Below are positions 3,396 to 36,073 of a stretch of 64,000 nucleotides of DNA, piece after piece (within the stretch, counting starts at the first letter, position 1; the number at the start of each line of letters is the position of its first letter). Made by a program: the position numbers and the translations under genes. This DNA is from a virus: IMG/VR virus record IMGVR_UViG_3300048834_000169, positions 17,796 to 81,795 of that record. The stretch is one strand, 5' to 3'. Below the pieces are notes generated by a model, which ran no database searches, had not been told where the DNA came from, and saw only the letters and a program-made list of their open reading frames with translations.

Positions 3396-3676
3396 CTATG
3401 TACGCTTATTTGATGTTTATGGCGTCCTTTACTGCGTGTCCCGCTACTGAGATTATAAATAAAACTTTTATACCAATTAATCAATTTGATATGCGGCAGT
3501 TAAGTAGAGCGCAGTTACGTTGCCGACAGCTGTATAAAAAAAGCCCGTGTCTTAAAATCTTCACTAAAATAGGGGAGCAGGATTACACCGCGATTTGCGG
3601 TAAGACTCGCAGCGCAGAGGTTGCGATAAGATCGGTATCGCCCGACGACATTGATGCTAGTGTACCGCTATACTAG
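3392..3676 (+). CDS. Hypothetical Cys-containing protein
   Basis: GTGA overlap with recA, GAGGA SD. Confidence 0.7.
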   Translation: MTMYAYLMFMASFTACPATEIINKTFIPINQFDMRQLSRAQLRCRQLYKKSPCLKIFTKIGEQDYTAICGKTRSAEVAIRSVSPDDIDASVPLY

Positions 3677-3708
3677 ATTCTTAAGCTTGAGCAGAAGGTT
3701 ATATAAGT

Positions 3709-3909
3709 ATGTTAACAGTAGAGTGTCAAAACGATCTTAACAACGACTTAATCACGTTTAGTCGCTACGGTCACCTAGCCGTAGTGCAGTACCTAATCGA
3801 AAAGGGCGCTAACGTTAGGGCCGATGGCGATGCGGCGCTACGCTGGGCGGCGAATAACGGGCACCTAGCCGTAGTACAGTATTTAAAGAATGTTATCGGG
3901 GAGAATTAA
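3709..3909 (+). CDS. Ankyrin-repeat protein B (1 variable repeat)
   Basis: N-cap, one repeat and C-cap; first 96 nt identical to 61498-61593. Confidence 0.9.
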   Translation: MLTVECQNDLNNDLITFSRYGHLAVVQYLIEKGANVRADGDAALRWAANNGHLAVVQYLKNVIGEN

Positions 3910-3912
3910 ATC

Positions 3913-4596
3913 ATGATACAGTATTTTAGAGATCTAACAGTGCTTCTAGTTGTCCTAATCTCAGTAACTGTATTAGCTGAAACACGTAAGAAAGTAGTTA
4001 TTATTGATTCTGGGATGCCGGAAACGTCGCAAGTATTGCCATACTTATGCTCGTCTGGTCATGCAGATTTCACTAAGACAAAGCTAGAGGATTATCACGG
4101 GCACGGTACTAACGTAGCCGGGCTAATAGCTAAGGGCCTTAATCCTAAGACACACTGTATGATTATTCTAAAATTCTACCATACGAAGGAGTTTCCTGGT
4201 GGGGCTCAGGTATCCGCCTCAGATAGTTACCTAAGAGCTTTAGATTACGCTAAAACTCTAAAGCCGCATATTATTAATCTGAGTCTTGCGGGACCTTACT
4301 TTATTCCTAAAGAAGCCGAGCTTATATCTAGTTTATTAAAAAGTGGTACCACAATCGTAACCGCTGCAGGTAATCTAAGGCTAGACTTGTCACAAAGTTG
4401 TAACGCATTTCCTGCATGTTACGAGTTTGGTATACCTGGTTTTTATGTGGTCGCGAGTCCGTCTATACTCAGCAATAAAAATGGTCCGGTAACTCATATT
4501 AGGGACGGTAATTATCAATGCGGCTTTAACGTATGTCTAAATGGAACTAGTCAGGCTGCGGCAAATTTTACCGCAGAACTCCTTACAGGCGAATAA
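3913..4596 (+). CDS. Compact subtilisin-family (S8) serine protease with signal peptide
   Basis: VVIIDSG (Asp), HGHGTNVAG (His), AAGN (oxyanion Asn), GTSQAA (Ser); hydrophobic N-terminus. Confidence 0.9.
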   Translation: MIQYFRDLTVLLVVLISVTVLAETRKKVVIIDSGMPETSQVLPYLCSSGHADFTKTKLEDYHGHGTNVAGLIAKGLNPKTHCMIILKFYHTKEFPGGAQVSASDSYLRALDYAKTLKPHIINLSLAGPYFIPKEAELISSLLKSGTTIVTAAGNLRLDLSQSCNAFPACYEFGIPGFYVVASPSILSNKNGPVTHIRDGNYQCGFNVCLNGTSQAAANFTAELLTGE

Positions 4597-17321: not shown

Positions 17322-20300
17322 TATCTGTTAATCCTTGGGCTGCTTACTTCAACTACTAATGATATGCCCTCTAACTGCCACTCTTCTCGAGCGACTTTAT
17401 GCTTGAACTGACAATTGAGCAAACTACATCGCTGCTTACCTAATGGTATGTATGTTCTAAATCCGCGCTGCCTAGAGTCTCCGCCCCAGGGCACTCCGCC
17501 CCACGGGAAGTAGCCCCAGTTACCTAGGCCCGGCCCTAATAACTGTATTTCTTCAAATCCAGACTGTAAGTCACTACTAAAGGCCAGCACTGGCGTAGTG
17601 ATCCTAGACTTCTTAAAACGCGCTGTAGCCTCTCTAAATTGCTTTATTTCACCTTCATTGCCCGCATCCTCAGGCGCCCATGTGATCTTGCACTGGTAAG
17701 CCTTATAGAGCGTTATAGGGCCTGTTATAAGGTCGTATACAGTCTCTACAGTTACGGTAGATCTAGCCGCGTTCACTGCTACCACTTTAGCCTCGACCTC
17801 ATAATCATATGATCCGTAGTCTAGTTCCATAGTGTGACTAACGGTCTGTACCAGAATATCGCCTATAGCTACATTAGCTACGCTAGACAACGTGGCGATA
17901 GAATTAGTAGCATCATATGATACTATCGACAGTGCGTATTCTCGGTCAGCATAGTCTGATCTAGTAAATGATTTACGCTCTTGCTCTATTGCGTTAATAT
18001 CAGAAGCGCCTAGGTAAAGCTTGTCATCATTGGAATTTACTATGGCGCAGGTCTTAGATTGTATCCAATTAGTCCACGCTTGTGTGACATTATTATATAC
18101 CCACGCTCTTTGCGATACTGTATCATTTGAGTCTTCCGGTAACCACAGGATATATTTACGGTCAGTTTGGTAAAACACGGCGAAGGCTGTAGATGGTATA
18201 TTTGCGTTGGGAGCTAGCTTTAATAGTTGATCCTCTACTGGTCTGGATATGACTAATACGCCATTATCTGATATGGTGCACACGCCTTGGTTAGAAAATG
18301 CGTAGATTTGGTTATTACCGATTGCGACGGTGTCTGGGCCTCGCACTTGTGCGGACAAGTCGAAAGCGTCCACAATAAGGCTAGAAGTAGTCTCGCCACT
18401 GATTCTGTACACGCCGTCTGCTTTAAGTACAAAAAGACTGTCGCGCAGAGCAACGATTCTAAGTATGTCTTTATCACCACTACCTACGTTAAAGAAGTTT
18501 AGGGTAGGTACGGCCTCATAAATATTCTGCTTAGAGTAGTAGATTCGGTTCTTAGTTACCTCATTATCTGATACTACCGCTAGTGCTGCTTTTTTAAAGA
18601 ATCCACGAGCAGTGCTTCCGCTTGTAGTAGTATTCACTGCAACAGTAAACGTATTAGATGATCGTGCTGTAATAGTCCTAAGGCCATCGCACAGCTCATC
18701 GGTATCAGTGTCCACTAAGTACACCTGATCGCCTACCTGTAGGCCATGCGCCGTAGTGGTAGTGATTACTGCTGAGGTAGCCGAGCTTATTGATGTAATG
18801 GGATTATTCTCTGGCGCTACACTAGGGCTGAAATTAGTGCTACCTACTGTAACGCTGTTAGACATTACGTAAAACGCACTAGAACTTATGGAGCGAGCCT
18901 CTAATAGTAATTTACCTGGAATATCGTCCACGCCGGAAATATAGTAAGCGTATATCGCGGTATTATCTGCGTATCTGTTTATAGTCCTGACTAAGTTACG
19001 CGCAGTTGTGTCCACATTTTGAGCAGGAGTGCCAGAAGTCTGAACTTCTATTTCATTTCCGTTAGCCGGAGTACCGGATACAAAGTCATACCTAGTATTG
19101 CCCACCCACAAGGAAGTTCCCACTAATCCAGAAACTCCCGTTAATGATAAGAGTCGCTTGTGGCGAGTCTTAGTATTAGCATAGAATGCAATGTTTTTAT
19201 AAATAGCGACATCTTTGGCAAAAGGGGGTTGCTCGTTAGCCTGCAGTATTCCCTCTTGTCTAGGGTTAGTGTAGAGGTCTGCTCCTCTAAAGCCGTCTGG
19301 CGTCTCGTCTGTCACTTCGATAATACCGTCTAGTATTTGCTGGGCTGTAGGGTTACTTTCGAATACTAGGCCCATATCGTCGCCAGGATTGATATTAAGA
19401 CCTGATGAAGCCTGGGTTCTGTATATCTGATAGAAGTAGTTAGTTGTAATGCCTTCGGGTACTGTAAAGGTTAGTGTAACGTTCTTACCTTGAATGGCGT
19501 TGGTGAAGTTCGCCGCTAACTGGGCTTGACCAATATAGTCCGCAGTACCTGATACTGTTATATCAGCGGCTACGGTAATGTCGAATGTAGTGGCGGTTAC
19601 GTTAGATATAGTGTAAGTGCCGTCTATGCTAGGAGTAGTGGTTGATCCTGTTATCTCCACGGAAGCGCCATTGGCCATTAGGTGCGTATCGTTAGTAGTG
19701 ACTGATATGGCGCCGGCTAGGCCAGTAGGAATAGTTAAAGTACCTTGAGCTGAAATATGTGCGTTAGGCTCGGCTATTAAAGCATCTACTACTTCGTCAA
19801 AGAAAGCTTGCTGCTCAATGAAGGCTTCCTCATTATCCACCTCAGGTGCAGGATAGTACTGAGCAATGCCGCTAGTCCACGAGCCCACGTCTACCCCTGT
19901 AGCTGCTACTGTAATAGCCTGATCTATTTTAATAGTGAAGTTAGTTGCTGTACGAGCAGTAATATCGTATGTACCGTCGATAGATGGAAAGCTGGTTGTA
20001 TTGGCTAAGGTAACAGAATCGCCTACTGATAGCGTGTTATTGGCAGTGATAATTACGGAAGAGCCAGCGGTGCCTGTAGGAATATTCGTGATTACGCCTG
20101 TGCTACCATAAACTGCGGGGTCCGGATTAGAGTGGCCAATATCGGCCTCTAATTTAAAGCATAGCTCTTTAAGCGCTGCGTTTAGTTCTACAGCACTAGC
20201 GGTAGTTCCTATGGCAAGCGTGTTGTAATCCGTATCAGTAAGAGTGCCGGTATTTATTGCGGCAGCGTCGTCTAATTTATCCAAAAGAGCGTTGAAGTCT

Positions 20301-29279: not shown

Positions 29280-29942
29280 TTATGTGTTTCCTTCATTTTC
29301 CGGAAATTGTTGTTTATGTTTTGAGATAAATACTACTCTATCTTTTTTGTTATTTGAGGCGGACTTATCATTCATACAGCGCCCTAGTGTTCTTAAACTT
29401 ATACCATATGCTCTTGCTGCGCTGCTTAGTCCGAGAAAAGAAGTTTTGTTTCCATTTTTCTCAAACGTAAAGACAAATTTCTTTTTTTCGGACATTTTTT
29501 TGACCTGTTCTTCTGGCATTTTCTTACCTAAACAAGCTGCTCGACATGCCGCAATTCTTTTAGCCACCATGGCCGGAGTGTGCAGGTGGGCAGGCTTTTT
29601 ACCTTTTTTACTTTGCGATAATTTTTTTCTGCTTTCTTCATTAAATTGAACACTACCGTCCCCGCCCGAGGTCATATTGTACCCAAATTCTTGTAAATTA
29701 CTTCTATACTTTGCTATGTAATATTTTTCTAGTTCCTGTAGTAAGCTATGGTCATTTGAGTACATATTAAATAAGATTACGACTTTAAAATTGTCTATAC
29801 CATACTTCGCAGCTGCACGCTTTAGCGCTACGTTTGTTGTGGCCGTAGCCCAGCATTTTCCGTATCTATACTTAAAGCACTTATAAGTCTTACCTATATA
29901 ACACTTATTATTAACTGTATTTAGTATTTGATATATTTGCAT
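29280..29942 (-). CDS. Free-standing GIY-YIG homing endonuclease
   Basis: QIYQI...CYIGKT, ELEKYYI, GYNMTSGG, NUMOD3-like repeats. Confidence 0.9.
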   Translation of the reverse strand: MQIYQILNTVNNKCYIGKTYKCFKYRYGKCWATATTNVALKRAAAKYGIDNFKVVILFNMYSNDHSLLQELEKYYIAKYRSNLQEFGYNMTSGGDGSVQFNEESRKKLSQSKKGKKPAHLHTPAMVAKRIAACRAACLGKKMPEEQVKKMSEKKKFVFTFEKNGNKTSFLGLSSAARAYGISLRTLGRCMNDKSASNNKKDRVVFISKHKQQFPENEGNT

Positions 29943-31160: not shown

Positions 31161-32756
31161 CTAATATTTGTTGCCGCTGTAAACTAATTTAATCTTTCCG
31201 CAGTCATAGACGCGCTTAAAACCATCTTTTGTGGCGTGCTCCAGTTCGGTCATTCCGGCCGGGGTGTTCACTAGGCGCTTTTGACGAGATTGCTTGGAGA
31301 CTACTGAACCATCCTGGCTGGACACATAAAAATAGTCTGGGGCTAATACGTTTACCACTTCCCAGCCGGCTTTAACGTAAGATTGGCCGTCAGACAGTGT
31401 TTTGTGGACCCATGTATAGATAGCTGTGTTAAAGTGCTTAGTGGCTATTTTAGAGAATTTAGATAGTGCCCCGGCCACCGATATGTCATCCTTAAAACAC
31501 AGTCGAGACAGCACGATCTCGTTTGAATTTCTATGATGACTAGAGAATGTGGCTAAACCGACTAGTTCGTTATTGTAAAAAGCTCCTAAAGATAGCTTAG
31601 AGTGTTGCGGCGCCCCTTGTATGTGATTTGCTTCGCAGAAATCTCTAGCTGTGGTCCAGTCTACTGGCCTAAACTCACACTTACGCGCTCCAATAGTAGT
31701 ACTGAGGCCTAGTTTAGGTTTTAGGAAGTTTAGGACTTGCTTGCGTCGATTTAGCCATTCGTGCTTCCATATGACCATCTTACCGCGTAACTGGGGGTCT
31801 TTTAGGTCCAGTTTGTAGTCACTTATGGCCACAGACTTTAAGACATTTATTCCACTAACGCCCAGAGCCGATGCCATGTCTTGCTCAAGGTCCGGCATTC
31901 TTTTCCATACGTATCCCTTATAGGGTTTACCTGAATCGATAGACTTTTTAATAGGCGTATTTTGATACCCAGCAGCAGTGGCTTCTATGCCAGCGTCGAA
32001 CACTAAAGTAGTTTTATCAGAATCTACTGGAACTGCTACAAGAGACTTTTTAATAGCGTCCCTCAATTTTTTCTTGTATTCGGGATCTTTTTTGAATTTT
32101 GCAGATATGGTTGCAGATATACGAGCATTCTTAGCATCAAGTCTAGTTCTTTTCTCCTCTTGAGTAAGTCTGGTATATTTTACATACTTAGAGCTATATG
32201 CATTATTGCATTCTCTGCATCTTGGATTTAATTTAGGCTGCTCTAGCACTACGCCCCTTCGTTTTCGTATTTCAGAGAAATTGGATGTTGGTAGAAGTCT
32301 TTTACACAGGCCACACTTTTTATGAGGCCTCCCTTCTACCATTTCTATGCGAAACGCGTTCCAAGCTGGCTTACCGGTAGGTCTCTTATTAGCTGCAGAT
32401 ATCTTATCCCTTACTTCTTGAGTGAATATGACTCTTTCTGGGGTCTGAAGAACAGAGTTATACCCATTAGGAAGAAGCGCAGAGTAGTAGTTAATAAAGT
32501 ACTCCTCTAGCCAATTTAGATCGATTTGGGTTTTAGCTGAAGCTAGTATACTCGTTTCAAATCCGTCCCAGGAATACTTCTTCAGAGCCCTGTAAAAAGC
32601 TTTACAAGATGCATAGCTGCTAATGCCGTTACTTTCGTTTTTGAACCTTCTAGCCGGGTCTTGTCTAGTTTGTCCTACATATGCCTTGCCGTTATGCTTA
32701 TTAATATGAACATAAACTATGCCGTAAGGAAGTTTATCATAATTATCTAAAGTCAT
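31161..32756 (-). CDS. GIY-YIG endonuclease fused to a Hef-like C-terminal region
   Basis: GIVY...YVGQT, PNGYN; CxxC...CxxC; ARKCE...NHIQG...RVYDCG. The ORF-track TTG start at 32792 coincides with a -35 box, so ATG 32756 is preferred. Confidence 0.8.
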   Translation of the reverse strand: MTLDNYDKLPYGIVYVHINKHNGKAYVGQTRQDPARRFKNESNGISSYASCKAFYRALKKYSWDGFETSILASAKTQIDLNWLEEYFINYYSALLPNGYNSVLQTPERVIFTQEVRDKISAANKRPTGKPAWNAFRIEMVEGRPHKKCGLCKRLLPTSNFSEIRKRRGVVLEQPKLNPRCRECNNAYSSKYVKYTRLTQEEKRTRLDAKNARISATISAKFKKDPEYKKKLRDAIKKSLVAVPVDSDKTTLVFDAGIEATAAGYQNTPIKKSIDSGKPYKGYVWKRMPDLEQDMASALGVSGINVLKSVAISDYKLDLKDPQLRGKMVIWKHEWLNRRKQVLNFLKPKLGLSTTIGARKCEFRPVDWTTARDFCEANHIQGAPQHSKLSLGAFYNNELVGLATFSSHHRNSNEIVLSRLCFKDDISVAGALSKFSKIATKHFNTAIYTWVHKTLSDGQSYVKAGWEVVNVLAPDYFYVSSQDGSVVSKQSRQKRLVNTPAGMTELEHATKDGFKRVYDCGKIKLVYSGNKY

Positions 32757-32763
32757 GTATATA

Positions 32764-32792
32764 AACATATCACACTTAGTACACATAGTCAA
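32764..32792 (-). promoter_or_regulatory. sigma70-like promoter for the endonuclease (near-leaderless)
   Basis: TTGACT-17-TATGTT, 7 nt before ATG 32756. Confidence 0.55.
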
Positions 32793-32922: not shown

Positions 32923-35900
32923 TTAAGAATTGATGATGTTATGAATGAGAATCAGTTTACCGGGGCAAGCGACAAACAATGCTTGATCCGAATAGGCTCT
33001 GATTTCGAAGCCCGCGACGTTCGGTATAGCTAAGAAGAACGCATCTCCACCGTTGGTCTGGTCCAGAGGTTGCTTGAAGGTAATGTCGGTAGATCCAACG
33101 CGCATCAATTCAGCTACGGGCAAGATGAAAGCGAGAGACTCTTTTACGTAAGTAGAAGGTCTGATTTCAACTCCACCGTTCTGAGCGTAGAACTTGATAG
33201 ACTGAGCGCCGTTCTCTGATTTTTCAACACTGTAAGAAGAGTCGAATTTACGGAGAGCAGCTTGGTCTGTCATGAGCTTAGCCCAAGTCTTGGGGTTAAC
33301 CAAGCAAAGAACGTCTTCGTCAAGGCCTTTTTCAACGCCACGAGCGATAGCTTGTTGAATTTTAGCGAAAGAGAGGTCAGCTCCGCCAGCATCATATTCA
33401 GTAGCTTTGAACAAGCTGTACTGAGAAGGGTTAATGCCGAACAAAGAAGAAGTCTCAGTCATGATAGCGTGGAGACCTTTGAATTCGTTACCCATAGAAC
33501 CTTTGAAGAAGATCCTGTCGGTAGCTACAACTGTGGCCAAGTTAGAGCTCAGCGTGAGGGTGCGGTCTTCCAAATTAACTCCAGTGATTGTTCTTTCGCC
33601 GCGAAGGGTCAAAAGATCAGCAGAGTAGATTTCGATTACTGCGTTCTCAGCGCCAACCCAGATACCAGGAGCCCAGTCAGCTTGAGAAATCTCAAGTACT
33701 GAACCGGTCATAGCGTCGTCAGCTTTAGCGAGTTCTTTTTGACCGTAGAACATGACGATTTCTAATCGCTTAGCGAAAGATCGAACCATGTTAGCTACGA
33801 TGAATTTCGTGCCGCGCTCGAAAGCTGCTTTGCTAGAAGCAGAACGTGTAGCTACAGACAAAGCAATTTGAGATCGCAGAAGGAACTCATATCCTTGGAT
33901 TGTAGCGTCGCGAACTGTTCCGGGAATAGCGTCGTTCAAGTTAAACGCTGTTCCAGCGGAGCCTCCGTAAGATACATGTGTTACCCTAAAGGCTTTTTAT
34001 CCCTTAGTTCTTATAGTTTCCTATAAGGTCAGCATATCTTTTCACCCTCCCGAGAGGGGTTGAGGACTCGTGGGTATGTTATAGTCTAGCTAATAAAGCT
34101 AGGATCAATACCTATGCGTTGCACGTGTATAGACATTTTAATATCTACACTTCCGTTCTGATTAACATAGTCTGAATAGTACATAAAAGTATGCGCCTTG
34201 TGCATTTGGCGTGCGCTTCGTTTCTTACATATCTGAACAACATTGCTCTTGTGAAATCCGTCATTTTTGACATCCATTAACATGTCATAAATCTTAATAG
34301 CTCCGGTTTTTAGGCATATCGCTACTATCTTCTCTTGACTGAATTTTCTTGATATTTGCTGCTTTGTTTGTTCAGTGTGTGGACGATTAAATCCGGGCTT
34401 GAAAATTTTAGCAGACCTTTTTATTCCGTCCGATATTCTTTTTCGAGCTAGTGGCGTGTGCTTTGTTCCGCCGTGGCCGCCGTCCTTTAGATTAAAACCA
34501 TCTGGGCTCAGAGTATTATACGCTTTCACTAACAAGTATTCTGCCTCGTTCAATGATTGCTCGCTAAACGCTATAAAAAGTTCTTCAACCTTAAATGCGC
34601 CTCTTCCATACTTACGAAGAGCCATATCAATATACATTTTAGACGAAGTTTTCCAGTAATGATCATTAAATCGATCCATTACCGAATCTCTCGTAGTCTT
34701 ACCTACATAAGCTTTTCCATCGCTTATTCTGGTAATTTTATATATTGATCCAAAACGTTTCATACTTTTATTATACCTTATTAGACTTTAGTCTTCCAGG
34801 TTTTTTCCTCAATTCTCGTAAACTTATTACTAAGTCTACCGGGCTATCTTAAAGCTTTAACCCGTGTTCGTGCATTCTGTTAACCTCTATTTCTAGAGTC
34901 CTTAGACATTTCTGCTAAGGTCTACCGTTTTATTTATGTCGGTAGTTCGGACTATCGCATCCCTCTCGGGTCTTCTCACTTAGTCTCTCAGGCTGCTTTC
35001 GCTTGCCCCTTGTTGCCCTGTTTCTCAGGATGTTCAAGTCAATCAGAGAAGATTTTACTTGGGCCAAATTAACCCAAAATTACTGGTTGATGATCTTATT
35101 GTTATCATTAGAGTTTTTTATCTCTAACATCTTATAGTTACCTATAAGGTCAGCATACATTTTCACATTTAAGTGTCGGAAGCTCTTGCCCAGATTATAT
35201 TCTCTTTCGAGGTTCACTGAGTATGCGTTACGAAGTTTTGGATTCGTTAGGTCCAATTCCCCTCGGTATTAACCTTTTATAAGGCCTTCACCGATACATC
35301 CCGATTTTTATACGAATTTAAAGTGATATCCGCCGGTACTAATTCTTAGTCCATTACAAACTAAGCTAATTTTGCTATAGTGTAAATTTAAATCTCTAGC
35401 GGCTTCTCTAGCCGACTTATAAACTTTACCAGTTTCTAAACACATTACCGGCTTAGGTCTAATTATTTTATCCTGATGCTCTTTACTATTTTTATGTCCG
35501 AGTCTTGCAATTCTATTCTTAGCTGCGTGCTCTTCTGAAACTTTCTTGCCTTTGCGGTCTTTGGACCATCTAGCCTTCATTTCAGGGGAGTGTAAATTTG
35601 AATAGCCGTTAATCGACTTTGGGCTAACGTTTAACCCGTCTACTCTAGTATTATATTGTAATATAAGCATCTCTTCTAAAATAACTGCCTGATCCAGCGT
35701 CAAATGCTCCTGAATAAGGACTATTTTGTAATGAGCCCTATTCCACTTACGTTTAGTAACGTGCTGAGCAAATCGTCTAGATAATGGCTGACCCGTCAGC
35801 CCTACGTAGACCGTCTTGTCATTTATATCTTGGATTTGATATACTTTATAATTCTTCAAGGTATTGTTCCTAAAAGGATTCTACCATATAGCGGGGGCTT

Positions 35901-36073
35901 TTTCTACCCGCAATCTCCATCTTCAACTTTTAGAGATTACCGGTTTGTTTGTCCATGGGAACGAAGTCAACTTCTTTCATGAGGACTACGTTATCAGGAA
36001 CTAAGTTTTCTACTTGATTCGCATAAAGTTCTTTAAAAAATCCATTAAGTGTTGCAACTGTATTTGCTGCCAT
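32923..36073 (-). CDS. Major capsid protein, spliced: exons 36073-35932, 35094-35072, 34872-34860, 33974-32923 (409 aa)
   Basis: Exons total 142+23+13+1052=1230 nt in one frame: MAANTVATLNGFFKELY...KQTGNL-YHQPVILG-HEHGL-SYGGSAG...; follows the scaffold gene and ends at a strong terminator. Confidence 0.88.
33975..34859 (-). mobile_element. Group I intron 3 (885 nt) carrying a GIY-YIG gene
   Basis: P1 CGGGU/GCCCG with U-G wobble; P10 TAAGATA pairs with 3' exon TATCTTA; P3 TTGAGGA/TCCTCAA; P7 GCATA/TATGC; terminal G at 33975. Confidence 0.9.
34086..34763 (-). CDS. Intron-encoded GIY-YIG homing endonuclease
   Basis: GSIYKI...AYVGKT, PDGFNL, NUMOD3-like repeats. Confidence 0.9.
   Translation of the reverse strand: MKRFGSIYKITRISDGKAYVGKTTRDSVMDRFNDHYWKTSSKMYIDMALRKYGRGAFKVEELFIAFSEQSLNEAEYLLVKAYNTLSPDGFNLKDGGHGGTKHTPLARKRISDGIKRSAKIFKPGFNRPHTEQTKQQISRKFSQEKIVAICLKTGAIKIYDMLMDVKNDGFHKSNVVQICKKRSARQMHKAHTFMYYSDYVNQNGSVDIKMSIHVQRIGIDPSFIS
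34873..35071 (-). mobile_element. Group I intron 2 (199 nt, no ORF)
   Basis: P1 TTGGGU/GCCCAA; P3 TCTTCTC/GAGAAGA; R element CTGAGAGACTA and S element GATGCGATAGTCC; terminal G at 34873. Confidence 0.9.
35095..35931 (-). mobile_element. Group I intron 1 (837 nt) carrying a GIY-YIG gene
   Basis: P1 AATCTCU/GGAGATT; P10 GTTGAAGAT against exon 2 ATCATCAAC (8/9); P7 GCATAC/GTATGC; terminal G at 35095. Confidence 0.9.
35308..35859 (-). CDS. Intron-encoded GIY-YIG endonuclease with NUMOD1-like HTH
   Basis: KVYQI...VYVGLT...RRFAQH; KPVMCLETGKVYKSAREAARDL. Confidence 0.85.
   Translation of the reverse strand: MKNYKVYQIQDINDKTVYVGLTGQPLSRRFAQHVTKRKWNRAHYKIVLIQEHLTLDQAVILEEMLILQYNTRVDGLNVSPKSINGYSNLHSPEMKARWSKDRKGKKVSEEHAAKNRIARLGHKNSKEHQDKIIRPKPVMCLETGKVYKSAREAARDLNLHYSKISLVCNGLRISTGGYHFKFV

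Follow-up and report, generated by a model that had tools for sequence, protein, structure and literature searches.

We examined a 64,000-nucleotide (nt) stretch of a metagenome-assembled phage in IMG/VR (IMGVR_UViG_3300048834_000169, a complete record of 81,795 bp, of which the stretch covers positions 17,796 to 81,795; hereafter the window, whose own positions are used throughout), and found that its sole major capsid gene, at 36073-32923, is very probably divided by three functional group I introns. All features of the capsid locus lie on the minus strand. The open reading frames (ORFs) listed there comprise 47 codons at 36073-35930, two internal frames at 35859-35308 and 34763-34086, and 338 codons ending at 32923. 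Without splicing, the capsid frame meets a TAA codon immediately 3' of U35932, that is, after 47 codons; joining four exons by coordinate, with removal of 837 nt (35931-35095), 199 nt (35071-34873) and 885 nt (34859-33975), yields 1230 nt, or 409 codons and a stop. An earlier sequence-only reading of this DNA had placed the stop, the three removed lengths with the restored 409-amino-acid (aa) frame, and the clustering of all three sites inside 36 nt of mRNA exactly so, and each of these was borne out. Its central claim, that the capsid gene is split by three group I introns and that the protein needs three splicing events, is upheld by the restored frame, the single copy of the gene, ribozyme cores that covary in their families and the GIY-YIG endonuclease ORFs; splicing itself, and self-catalysis, we infer from this anatomy.

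Exon 1 (36073-35932) is 142 nt long (47 codons plus 1 nt), ends in U35932 and has its last 7 nt in P1, paired with 35918-35912. It is followed by two micro-exons: exon 2 (35094-35072) of 23 nt, which finishes the tyrosine codon begun in exon 1 and adds the next seven residues, and exon 3 (34872-34860) of 13 nt, which supplies four conserved residues and the first base of the following codon. Exon 4 (33974-32923), at 1052 nt including the stop, encodes the C-terminal 350 residues of the capsid protein. The three insertion sites are therefore packed into 36 nt of coding sequence (23 + 13 nt). All three upstream exons end in U and all three introns end in G (G35095, G34873 and G33975); as we read the sequence, splice sites shifted by one base that would give an identical mRNA would forfeit the terminal G. 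The P1 helix with its U-G wobble, the P3 and P7 pairings and the terminal G previously claimed for each intron were checked base by base and stand.

Comparison with uninterrupted genes supports the spliced product as the real protein. A homologue search with exon 4 returned 1396 matches at E <= 0.001, of which the best 120 were used; these are mostly 404-421 aa long and extend about 60 residues further at the N terminus than exon 4 does. The spliced product was aligned with 93 uninterrupted homologues of at least 397 aa, and the resulting 94-row alignment is free of gaps at all three junctions. Within the segment encoded by the micro-exons, G45, P51 and G59 are conserved in 94 of 94 rows, V52 in 93, E57 in 91 and Q50 in 88. 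The sequence-only reading had singled out homologues as the place where this segment might prove to be lacking; the intron-less homologues carry it, and one of them, P0003 (79% identical over exon 4), equals the spliced product throughout the whole junction region. Because 36 nt would not encode a conserved segment by chance, we regard the micro-exons as true exons under selection, and their being real requires the precise removal of all three inserts.

Exon 4 matches PHROG 14242 'major head protein' (E = 2.7e-14), as do 24 of the 24 full-length homologues scanned (best E = 1.1e-20), and tblastn gave weak matches to annotated capsid genes of Arthrobacter phages. Upstream of the gene and on the same strand lie the large terminase subunit (47010-45541), the portal protein (45526-43481) and a scaffold-like acidic ORF of 341 aa (37277-36252), so that the head module runs from terminase to portal and, further on, from the scaffold-like frame to the capsid gene. 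An HK97 fold of the capsid protein is assumed. The IMG/VR record carries direct terminal repeats, is rated 100% complete and contains exactly one match to exon 4, which leaves the phage with no spare capsid gene.

Introns 1 (35931-35095) and 3 (34859-33975) are group I introns of one family, intron 1 having IA2-like features. In intron 1, P1 pairs 35938-35932 with 35918-35912 (7 bp, the terminal U opposite G), and the helix check places the P10 guide at 35926-35919 and P2 at 35911-35891. The entire catalytic core (35304-35095) lies 3' of the ORF and comprises P3 (35304-35299/35181-35176), P4 (35294-35290/35267-35263), P5 (35286-35281/35276-35271), P6/P6a (35262-35232), P7 (35226-35222/35157-35153), P7.1 (35221-35217/35193-35189), P7.2 (35211-35202), P8 (about 35175-35164), P9 (35148-35131) and P9.1 (35128-35107). 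The minimum-energy fold of 35307-35095 (z = -2.85) recovers P4/P5, P7, P7.2, P8, P9 and P9.1. In intron 3, P1 is shorter (34864-34860 with 34844-34840; 5 bp, again with the terminal U paired to G) and is accompanied by a P10 guide (34851-34845), P2 (34839-34818), P3 (34812-34806/34066-34060), P4 (34801-34798/34778-34775) and P5 (34794-34783); the ORF occupies the P6 region, followed by P7 (34117-34113/34036-34032), P7.1 (34112-34108/34077-34073), P7.2 (34102-34086), P8 (34058-34045), P9 (34027-34010) and P9.1 (34007-33986). Both introns thus have nested helices P7.1 and P7.2 between P7 and the 3' strand of P3, and compensating changes occur in the outer helix, P7.1, among intron 1, intron 3 and their relatives in phages TPWB06 and SpP, four sequences only. 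According to Michel and Westhof, helices in this position reportedly mark subgroup IA2. Two placements were rejected after comparison with relatives, namely a P7 of intron 3 directly before the conserved CACGAG motif and a P4/P5 of intron 1 located 5' of the ORF.

The frames inside these two introns encode predicted GIY-YIG homing endonucleases. That of intron 1 (35859-35308), located between the P2 region and P3, has a TTG start and 183 aa, scores above the cut-offs of PF01541 (31.4 bits; cut-off 22.6) and PF22083 (37.8 bits; cut-off 27), matches PHROG 314 'homing endonuclease' (E = 4.1e-23) and ends in a NUMOD-like DNA-binding domain. The intron 3 product (34763-34086; 225 aa) scores 27.9 bits with PF01541 (cut-off 22.6) and E = 5.8e-31 with PHROG 314, and the last ~30 nt of its frame overlap P7, P7.1 and P7.2. 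The GIY-YIG domain is N-terminal in both proteins, which are only 26% identical, indicating that introns 1 and 3 are not recent copies of each other.

The 3' ends of introns 1 and 3 are widespread in phages. Their last ~65 nt show 80-89% identity to unannotated gaps in 62 phage records, among them a site between an HNH gene and the split tape-measure gene of Staphylococcus phage 6ec, a site beside an annotated Intron_gpI within the tail genes of Clostridium phage phiCD211, where the tape-measure gene is likewise split, and ORF-less stretches between terminase fragments of Staphylococcus phage SpP and Arcanobacterium phage TPWB06. The similarity to the latter two inserts extends over the 3' 135 nt of intron 1, at 70-74% identity. 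In Bacillus phage Megatron (KJ489401) the match falls just after the annotated I-BasI gene, between two DNA polymerase fragments, where the last ~65 nt of introns 1 and 3 recur at 80-85% identity (80-86% for intron 1). A partial RF00028 match at this site ties the family to a recognised intron. This common stretch covers J8/7, the P7 3' strand, P9, P9.1 and the 3' tail, and Megatron, like the window, has a gene split with an endonuclease ORF inside. Its host gene is a DNA polymerase gene rather than a capsid gene, however, the P7 sequence differs, and the Megatron ORF is in the P8 region whereas in the window the ORF of intron 1 precedes P3 and that of intron 3 is placed in P6; I-BasI we take to be of the HNH endonuclease class. 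Evidence for the 3' boundary came from one wastewater sequencing run, where contigs of other organisms match the window only from 34048 down to 33974-33979 and then diverge, so that the shared element ends at the predicted 3' splice site of intron 3.

A degenerate pattern built on the P9.1 loop and the 3' tail recovered at least 110 IMG/VR stretches with at least 118 distinct sequences. Unguided RNAalifold analysis of the 3' domain in 70 sequences, out of 95 passing a length and motif filter, predicts P8, P9 and P9.1 for the family, with compensatory changes in 14 of 15 pairs. P7 was tested without alignment in 57 records that passed the filters, by searching the 110 nt upstream of CACGAG for an exact complement. 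Among the 38 records with the first 3' strand, the complement of their own strand was present in 36 and that of the other in none; among the 18 with the other 3' strand, the figures were 16 for their own and one for the first; the remaining record, which has a third variant, was set aside. Similarly, a 6-bp P3 partner for the record's own 3' strand occurs within 250 nt upstream of P7 in 69 of 91 records, compared with a mean of 27.7 and a maximum of 40 records over 200 shuffles of partners among the records.

Several of these relatives are themselves of interest. The large-subunit terminase genes of SpP (L017) and TPWB06 (L018) are annotated as several fragments and each locus contains two elements of the intron 1/3 type; they are multi-intron late genes hidden in ordinary annotation. 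In phiCD211 (L005, LN681537), two introns appear to lie in tandem in the tail gene region (1307-1865 of L005); an element of the intron 1/3 type ends near 1576 and the second of the pair is the annotated Intron_gpI, from 1600. A short exon of about 33 nt with a 3'-terminal U seems to separate the two.

Intron 2 (35071-34873) is a compact group I intron of 199 nt with no ORF. Its P1 pairs 35077-35072 with 35064-35059 (6 bp, the terminal U opposite G), and its core consists of P3 (35051-35046/34977-34972), P4 (35038-35035/35012-35009), P5 (35030-35026/35020-35016), P6 (35008-35005/34993-34990), P6a (35002-34995), P7 (34985-34981/34954-34950) and P8 (34970-34961). On the 3' side of the core are three hairpins, P9 (34945-34922), P9.1 (34920-34900) and P9.2 (34898-34885), and then a tail ending in G34873; helices of the P7.1/P7.2 type are absent. 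The minimum-energy fold (z = -2.58) recovers P5, P6, P7, P8, P9, P9.1 and P9.2. By blastn, intron 2 has relatives in two split genes: one lies in the 217 nt that separate two 'P22 coat protein' fragments in the uncultured podovirus MW202674, the other in the 400 nt that separate two fragments of ribonucleotide reductase in Roseobacter phage CRP-118. Two gap-joined core motifs of intron 2 retrieved at least 120 IMG/VR stretches with at least 111 distinct cores, and RNAalifold, run on 80 family members with no structure supplied, predicted P3, P4, P5, P6, P6a and P8, with compensatory changes in 18 of 24 pairs; P7 crosses P3 and is therefore beyond what the program can predict.

The P22-like coat genes of this family include six IMG/VR loci with two intron-2-type cores (L020, L030, L033, L068, L069 and L074) and one with three (L028, IMGVR_UViG_3300025598_000264, 460-2475). 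The annotation of MW202674 presents its split coat gene as two 'P22 coat protein' coding sequences and a small hypothetical protein. Covariance models built for both intron families detected no copies in the phage genome at E <= 1 beyond the three introns themselves, whose own matches are expected by construction.

Several points weigh against the interpretation of these inserts as three functional introns in the capsid gene. The Rfam group I model RF00028 matches none of the three introns, whether on the whole window, on 4 kb or, even at E <= 10, on the 251 nt around intron 2; a covariance-model search had been put forward by the sequence-only reading as a check, and with the Rfam model it came back empty. 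In the intron 2 family the search pattern had fixed the 3' strand of P7, and the 5' strand is invariant across the 80 sequences; P10 of intron 2 amounts to about 2 bp at most, by reading of the sequence. P4-P6 and P7.1/P7.2 of introns 1 and 3 were modelled by hand and compared with three or four relatives. The assignment as major capsid protein is indirect, derived from one PHROG family and gene order, while the protein had no Pfam match and a PDB sequence search gave only a chance match (E = 0.12). Finally, no RNA run containing the locus was found, and four sequencing runs with 5-6% of the sampled words yielded short pieces of exon 4 and foreign intron fragments over 33974-34048 and no joined form, a result that is uninformative on expression.

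The failure of RF00028 is not specific to the window. It fails equally on the ORF-less relatives found inside coat, reductase and terminase genes and on the phiCD211 stretch labelled Intron_gpI in its own GenBank record, and on Megatron it reaches 42.8 and 25.4 bits, below its gathering score of 50. Since it overlooks these sequences, its silence weighs more against the reach of the model than against the introns; a curated model serves to detect members of the group I class and does not define it. A 2025 survey describes similar trouble with detection by the group I model. Two abundant phage intron families thus escape Rfam's only group I model and, given its blindness to both, split structural genes are probably mis-annotated as fragments on a large scale. 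Genes of this kind annotated as fragments in GenBank were seen in MW202674, CRP-118, SpP and TPWB06.

With three functional introns, expression of the gene would proceed as follows. Late transcription would produce a precursor of about 3.2 kb from which all three introns must leave. Each intron's guide would pair with the last 5-7 nt of its upstream exon, leaving a U.G wobble at the cleavage site; exogenous G would attack after the U of this P1 pair, the terminal G of the intron would then enter the P7 site, and the exons would be ligated. P10, which forms 7 of 8 pairs in intron 1 and 7 of 7 in intron 3, in agreement with the clear P10 noted earlier for these two introns, may help to position the downstream exon. 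Only the fully spliced mRNA of 1230 nt would yield the 409-aa capsid protein. The micro-exons are used as follows: in exon 2 the first 8 nt pair with the P10 guide of intron 1 and the last 6 nt form P1 of intron 2, and in exon 3 the last 5 nt form P1 of intron 3. These demands do not overlap, so the micro-exons are long enough to meet them. The suggestion that almost all of exon 3 is engaged in splice-site pairing goes too far, given that only 5 of its 13 nt lie in the P1 of intron 3 and that P10 of intron 2 is marginal. Exons of 23 and 13 nt leave little beyond P1 and P10, and the locus is a natural test of how tightly group I introns can be packed and of whether the order of their splicing matters.

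The order of splicing leads to the alternative that survives best, although we consider it quite unlikely: the introns would be real, but at least one of them could not splice unaided and would depend on a protein of the phage or its host, or on removal in a set 5'-to-3' sequence, so that splicing would limit or time capsid production, possibly with exon-skipped by-products. The last four bases of exons 2 and 3 are identical, and the guide of intron 3 could therefore pair with the end of exon 2 as well. The resulting mis-splice, joining exon 2 to exon 4, would cause a frameshift, and removal of the introns in the order of transcription would avoid it. The starts of exon 2 and exon 4 likewise share a 5-nt stretch able to pair with the P10 guide of intron 1, the weak P10 of intron 2 fits a need for assistance, and exon skipping is reported for three similar introns of one gene of phage Twort (PMC3073962). 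The consequences of skipping argue the other way. Omission of exon 3 alone causes a frameshift; omission of both micro-exons (36 nt) does keep the frame, as the sequence-only reading had pointed out, but costs 12 residues including positions invariant in 94 of 94 rows, and such products are more likely waste than isoforms. Hundreds of capsid copies per virion also argue for efficient splicing, each particle drawing on an mRNA that needs three accurate ribozyme reactions within 36 nt. The further proposal that splicing order or exon skipping regulates capsid output is unsupported.

We regard as highly improbable that the locus is a dead gene, in which the phage is defective, its capsid gene disrupted by endonuclease cassettes and intron remnants, with no splicing at all. 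Damaged alleles do exist in the data sets, as the TAA in a related gene described below illustrates, and the missing Rfam match would suit remnants. Decay of this kind is contradicted by the four exons, which keep an intact frame and match their homologues residue for residue at the junctions, by ribozyme cores that retain every helix covarying in their families, by two endonuclease ORFs that are open and score above the Pfam cut-offs, and by the genome, which is complete, carries terminal repeats and lacks another capsid gene. That an assembler merged inserts from different strains into one contig is barely credible even for a metagenome-assembled virus of which the four runs found contain only short pieces of the locus, because any short read across exons of 23 and 13 nt reaches both flanking introns and the contig could not have been joined without such reads, and because protein P0002 (83% identical) starts where the truncated exon 4 ORF of the window does, as would be expected if another source also had an intron at site 3.

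The three introns lie in a segment of the gene that varies among relatives in whether, and where, it is interrupted. Eight related loci cover this hot spot, of which seven are uninterrupted (L001, L006, L008, L009, L012, L014 and L011) and one carries an insert. In L011 (Ga0137395_10004062, about 1226-1228; 70% identical), a TAA within the hot spot replaces the Gln conserved in 88 of 94 rows; a sequencing error, a defective variant and other causes are all conceivable. The interrupted locus, L007 (IMGVR_UViG_3300002092_000003, 3563-4452), whose capsid gene is 48% identical, is split once, by an 890-nt intron that has a core of the intron 2 type and carries an HNH ORF in its P6 loop. This intron follows the second base of the Val codon, within the equivalent of exon 2, and so occupies a fourth site of the hot spot. 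Among the best 120 protein matches, 26 lack the N terminus and 20 of these start at residues 46-72, counts that include the window's own ORF and P0010 (which has a nonsense codon, not an intron) and in which some starts may be contig ends. In P0060, P0094 and P0109, unrelated residues precede the start of homology, a hint of ORF calls that run from an intron into the next exon. Taken over the capsid protein family, the inserts probably occupy no fewer than four or five different sites in about 45 nt.

A further 80 hot-spot loci, all of them uninterrupted, are biased toward intron-less genes, one of the two search peptides being the hot-spot segment itself, and they were not used as a frequency. 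The idea that the hot spot is the most conserved part of the gene was discarded: its mean majority fraction is 0.813 against 0.716 for the gene (rank 36 among 1192 segments of 36 nt, top 3%), a figure inflated by the same retrieval bias.

The presence and absence of introns, their differing sites and their differing endonuclease classes together are the signature of homing. The GIY-YIG enzymes presumably cut intron-less capsid alleles of co-infecting relatives, and repair would insert the introns. Intron 2 has no endonuclease gene and, with just 23 and 13 nt between it and introns 1 and 3, was plausibly carried along by co-conversion. Introns and endonuclease classes clustered at one capsid segment suggest that homing has targeted it repeatedly, which is relevant to phage-phage competition.

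A bolder version, possible but in our judgement unlikely, holds that the three introns form one mobile and splicing unit of 1.96 kb, a capsid hot spot filled close to its physical limit. The ORF-less middle intron would then spread solely by co-conversion, each resident intron would destroy the target sites of the others, and the shared ends of exons 2 and 3 would demand co-transcriptional 5'-to-3' intron removal for a correct capsid mRNA. If this were true, the locus would be both an inter-phage weapon and a timing constraint on head assembly, and the segment a recurrent battleground.

A late gene of Staphylococcus phage Twort reportedly contains three group I introns (Landthaler and Shub, 1999). 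As PMC3073962 presents them, the Twort introns resemble the arrangement in the window in being three group I introns of one phage gene for which exon skipping between neighbours is raised. The Twort introns are, however, called mutually similar, whereas the window mixes two families and two of its three introns have GIY-YIG genes; the three sites of the window fall inside 36 nt, with exons of 23 and 13 nt between them. Capsid-gene introns are known from mycobacteriophage LittleE, with splicing established by reverse-transcription PCR and N-terminal protein sequencing, and from lactococcal phage Tuc2009 (PMC3706429). These share with the window the host gene and the group I hallmarks of a U at the exon end and a G at the intron end, and the LittleE intron has a putative homing endonuclease; its authors argue that efficient splicing is necessary. 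They differ in that each gene has one intron with proven splicing, where the window has three with splicing predicted from sequence.

Two or three introns per gene are reported for the terminase and DNA polymerase of the Bastillevirinae (PMC11878797). Like the capsid gene of the window, these genes, which include a late terminase, can contain as many as three group I introns, mainly of IA2- or IA3-like type and most with a homing nuclease loop; the word 'capsid' does not occur in the main text of that report. The P22-like coat genes of IMG/VR and MW202674, on whose introns no publication was found, share with the window the intron 2 family and a major capsid gene as its host, with three cores in L028, but they represent a different capsid family and a single intron family, and their exons are about 100 nt or longer rather than 13-23 nt. 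The earlier remark that multi-intron late genes are uncommon therefore does not stand in view of the LittleE and Tuc2009 capsid introns, the Bastillevirinae terminases and the coat genes with two or three cores. Micro-exons of 12-15 bp occur in the intron-rich mitochondrial cox1, cob and cox2 genes of Armillaria (PMC6506933); these genes, rich in mobile introns, have tiny exons between introns as the window does but belong to a fungal organelle and not to a phage. A search of the main texts of a limited set of papers found no report of a phage capsid gene with three introns, nor of micro-exons flanked by group I introns in a phage. The apparent novelty lies in the combination: a sole capsid gene in which three introns of two families are crowded into 36 nt, with exons of 23 and 13 nt between them. 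Each element has a precedent, whether introns in capsid genes, genes with three introns or micro-exons, and the locus is no new kind of biology.

Two further GIY-YIG genes lie just downstream of the capsid gene, also on the minus strand, bringing the total to four in ~7 kb around it. The first (31161-32792) encodes 543 aa, the C-terminal part of which matches PHROGs 3339 and 559 (homing/HNH endonuclease) and, more weakly, a Mom-like family; the second (29280-29942) encodes a GIY-YIG protein of 220 aa. Both are away from any match of the two intron models and so look free-standing.

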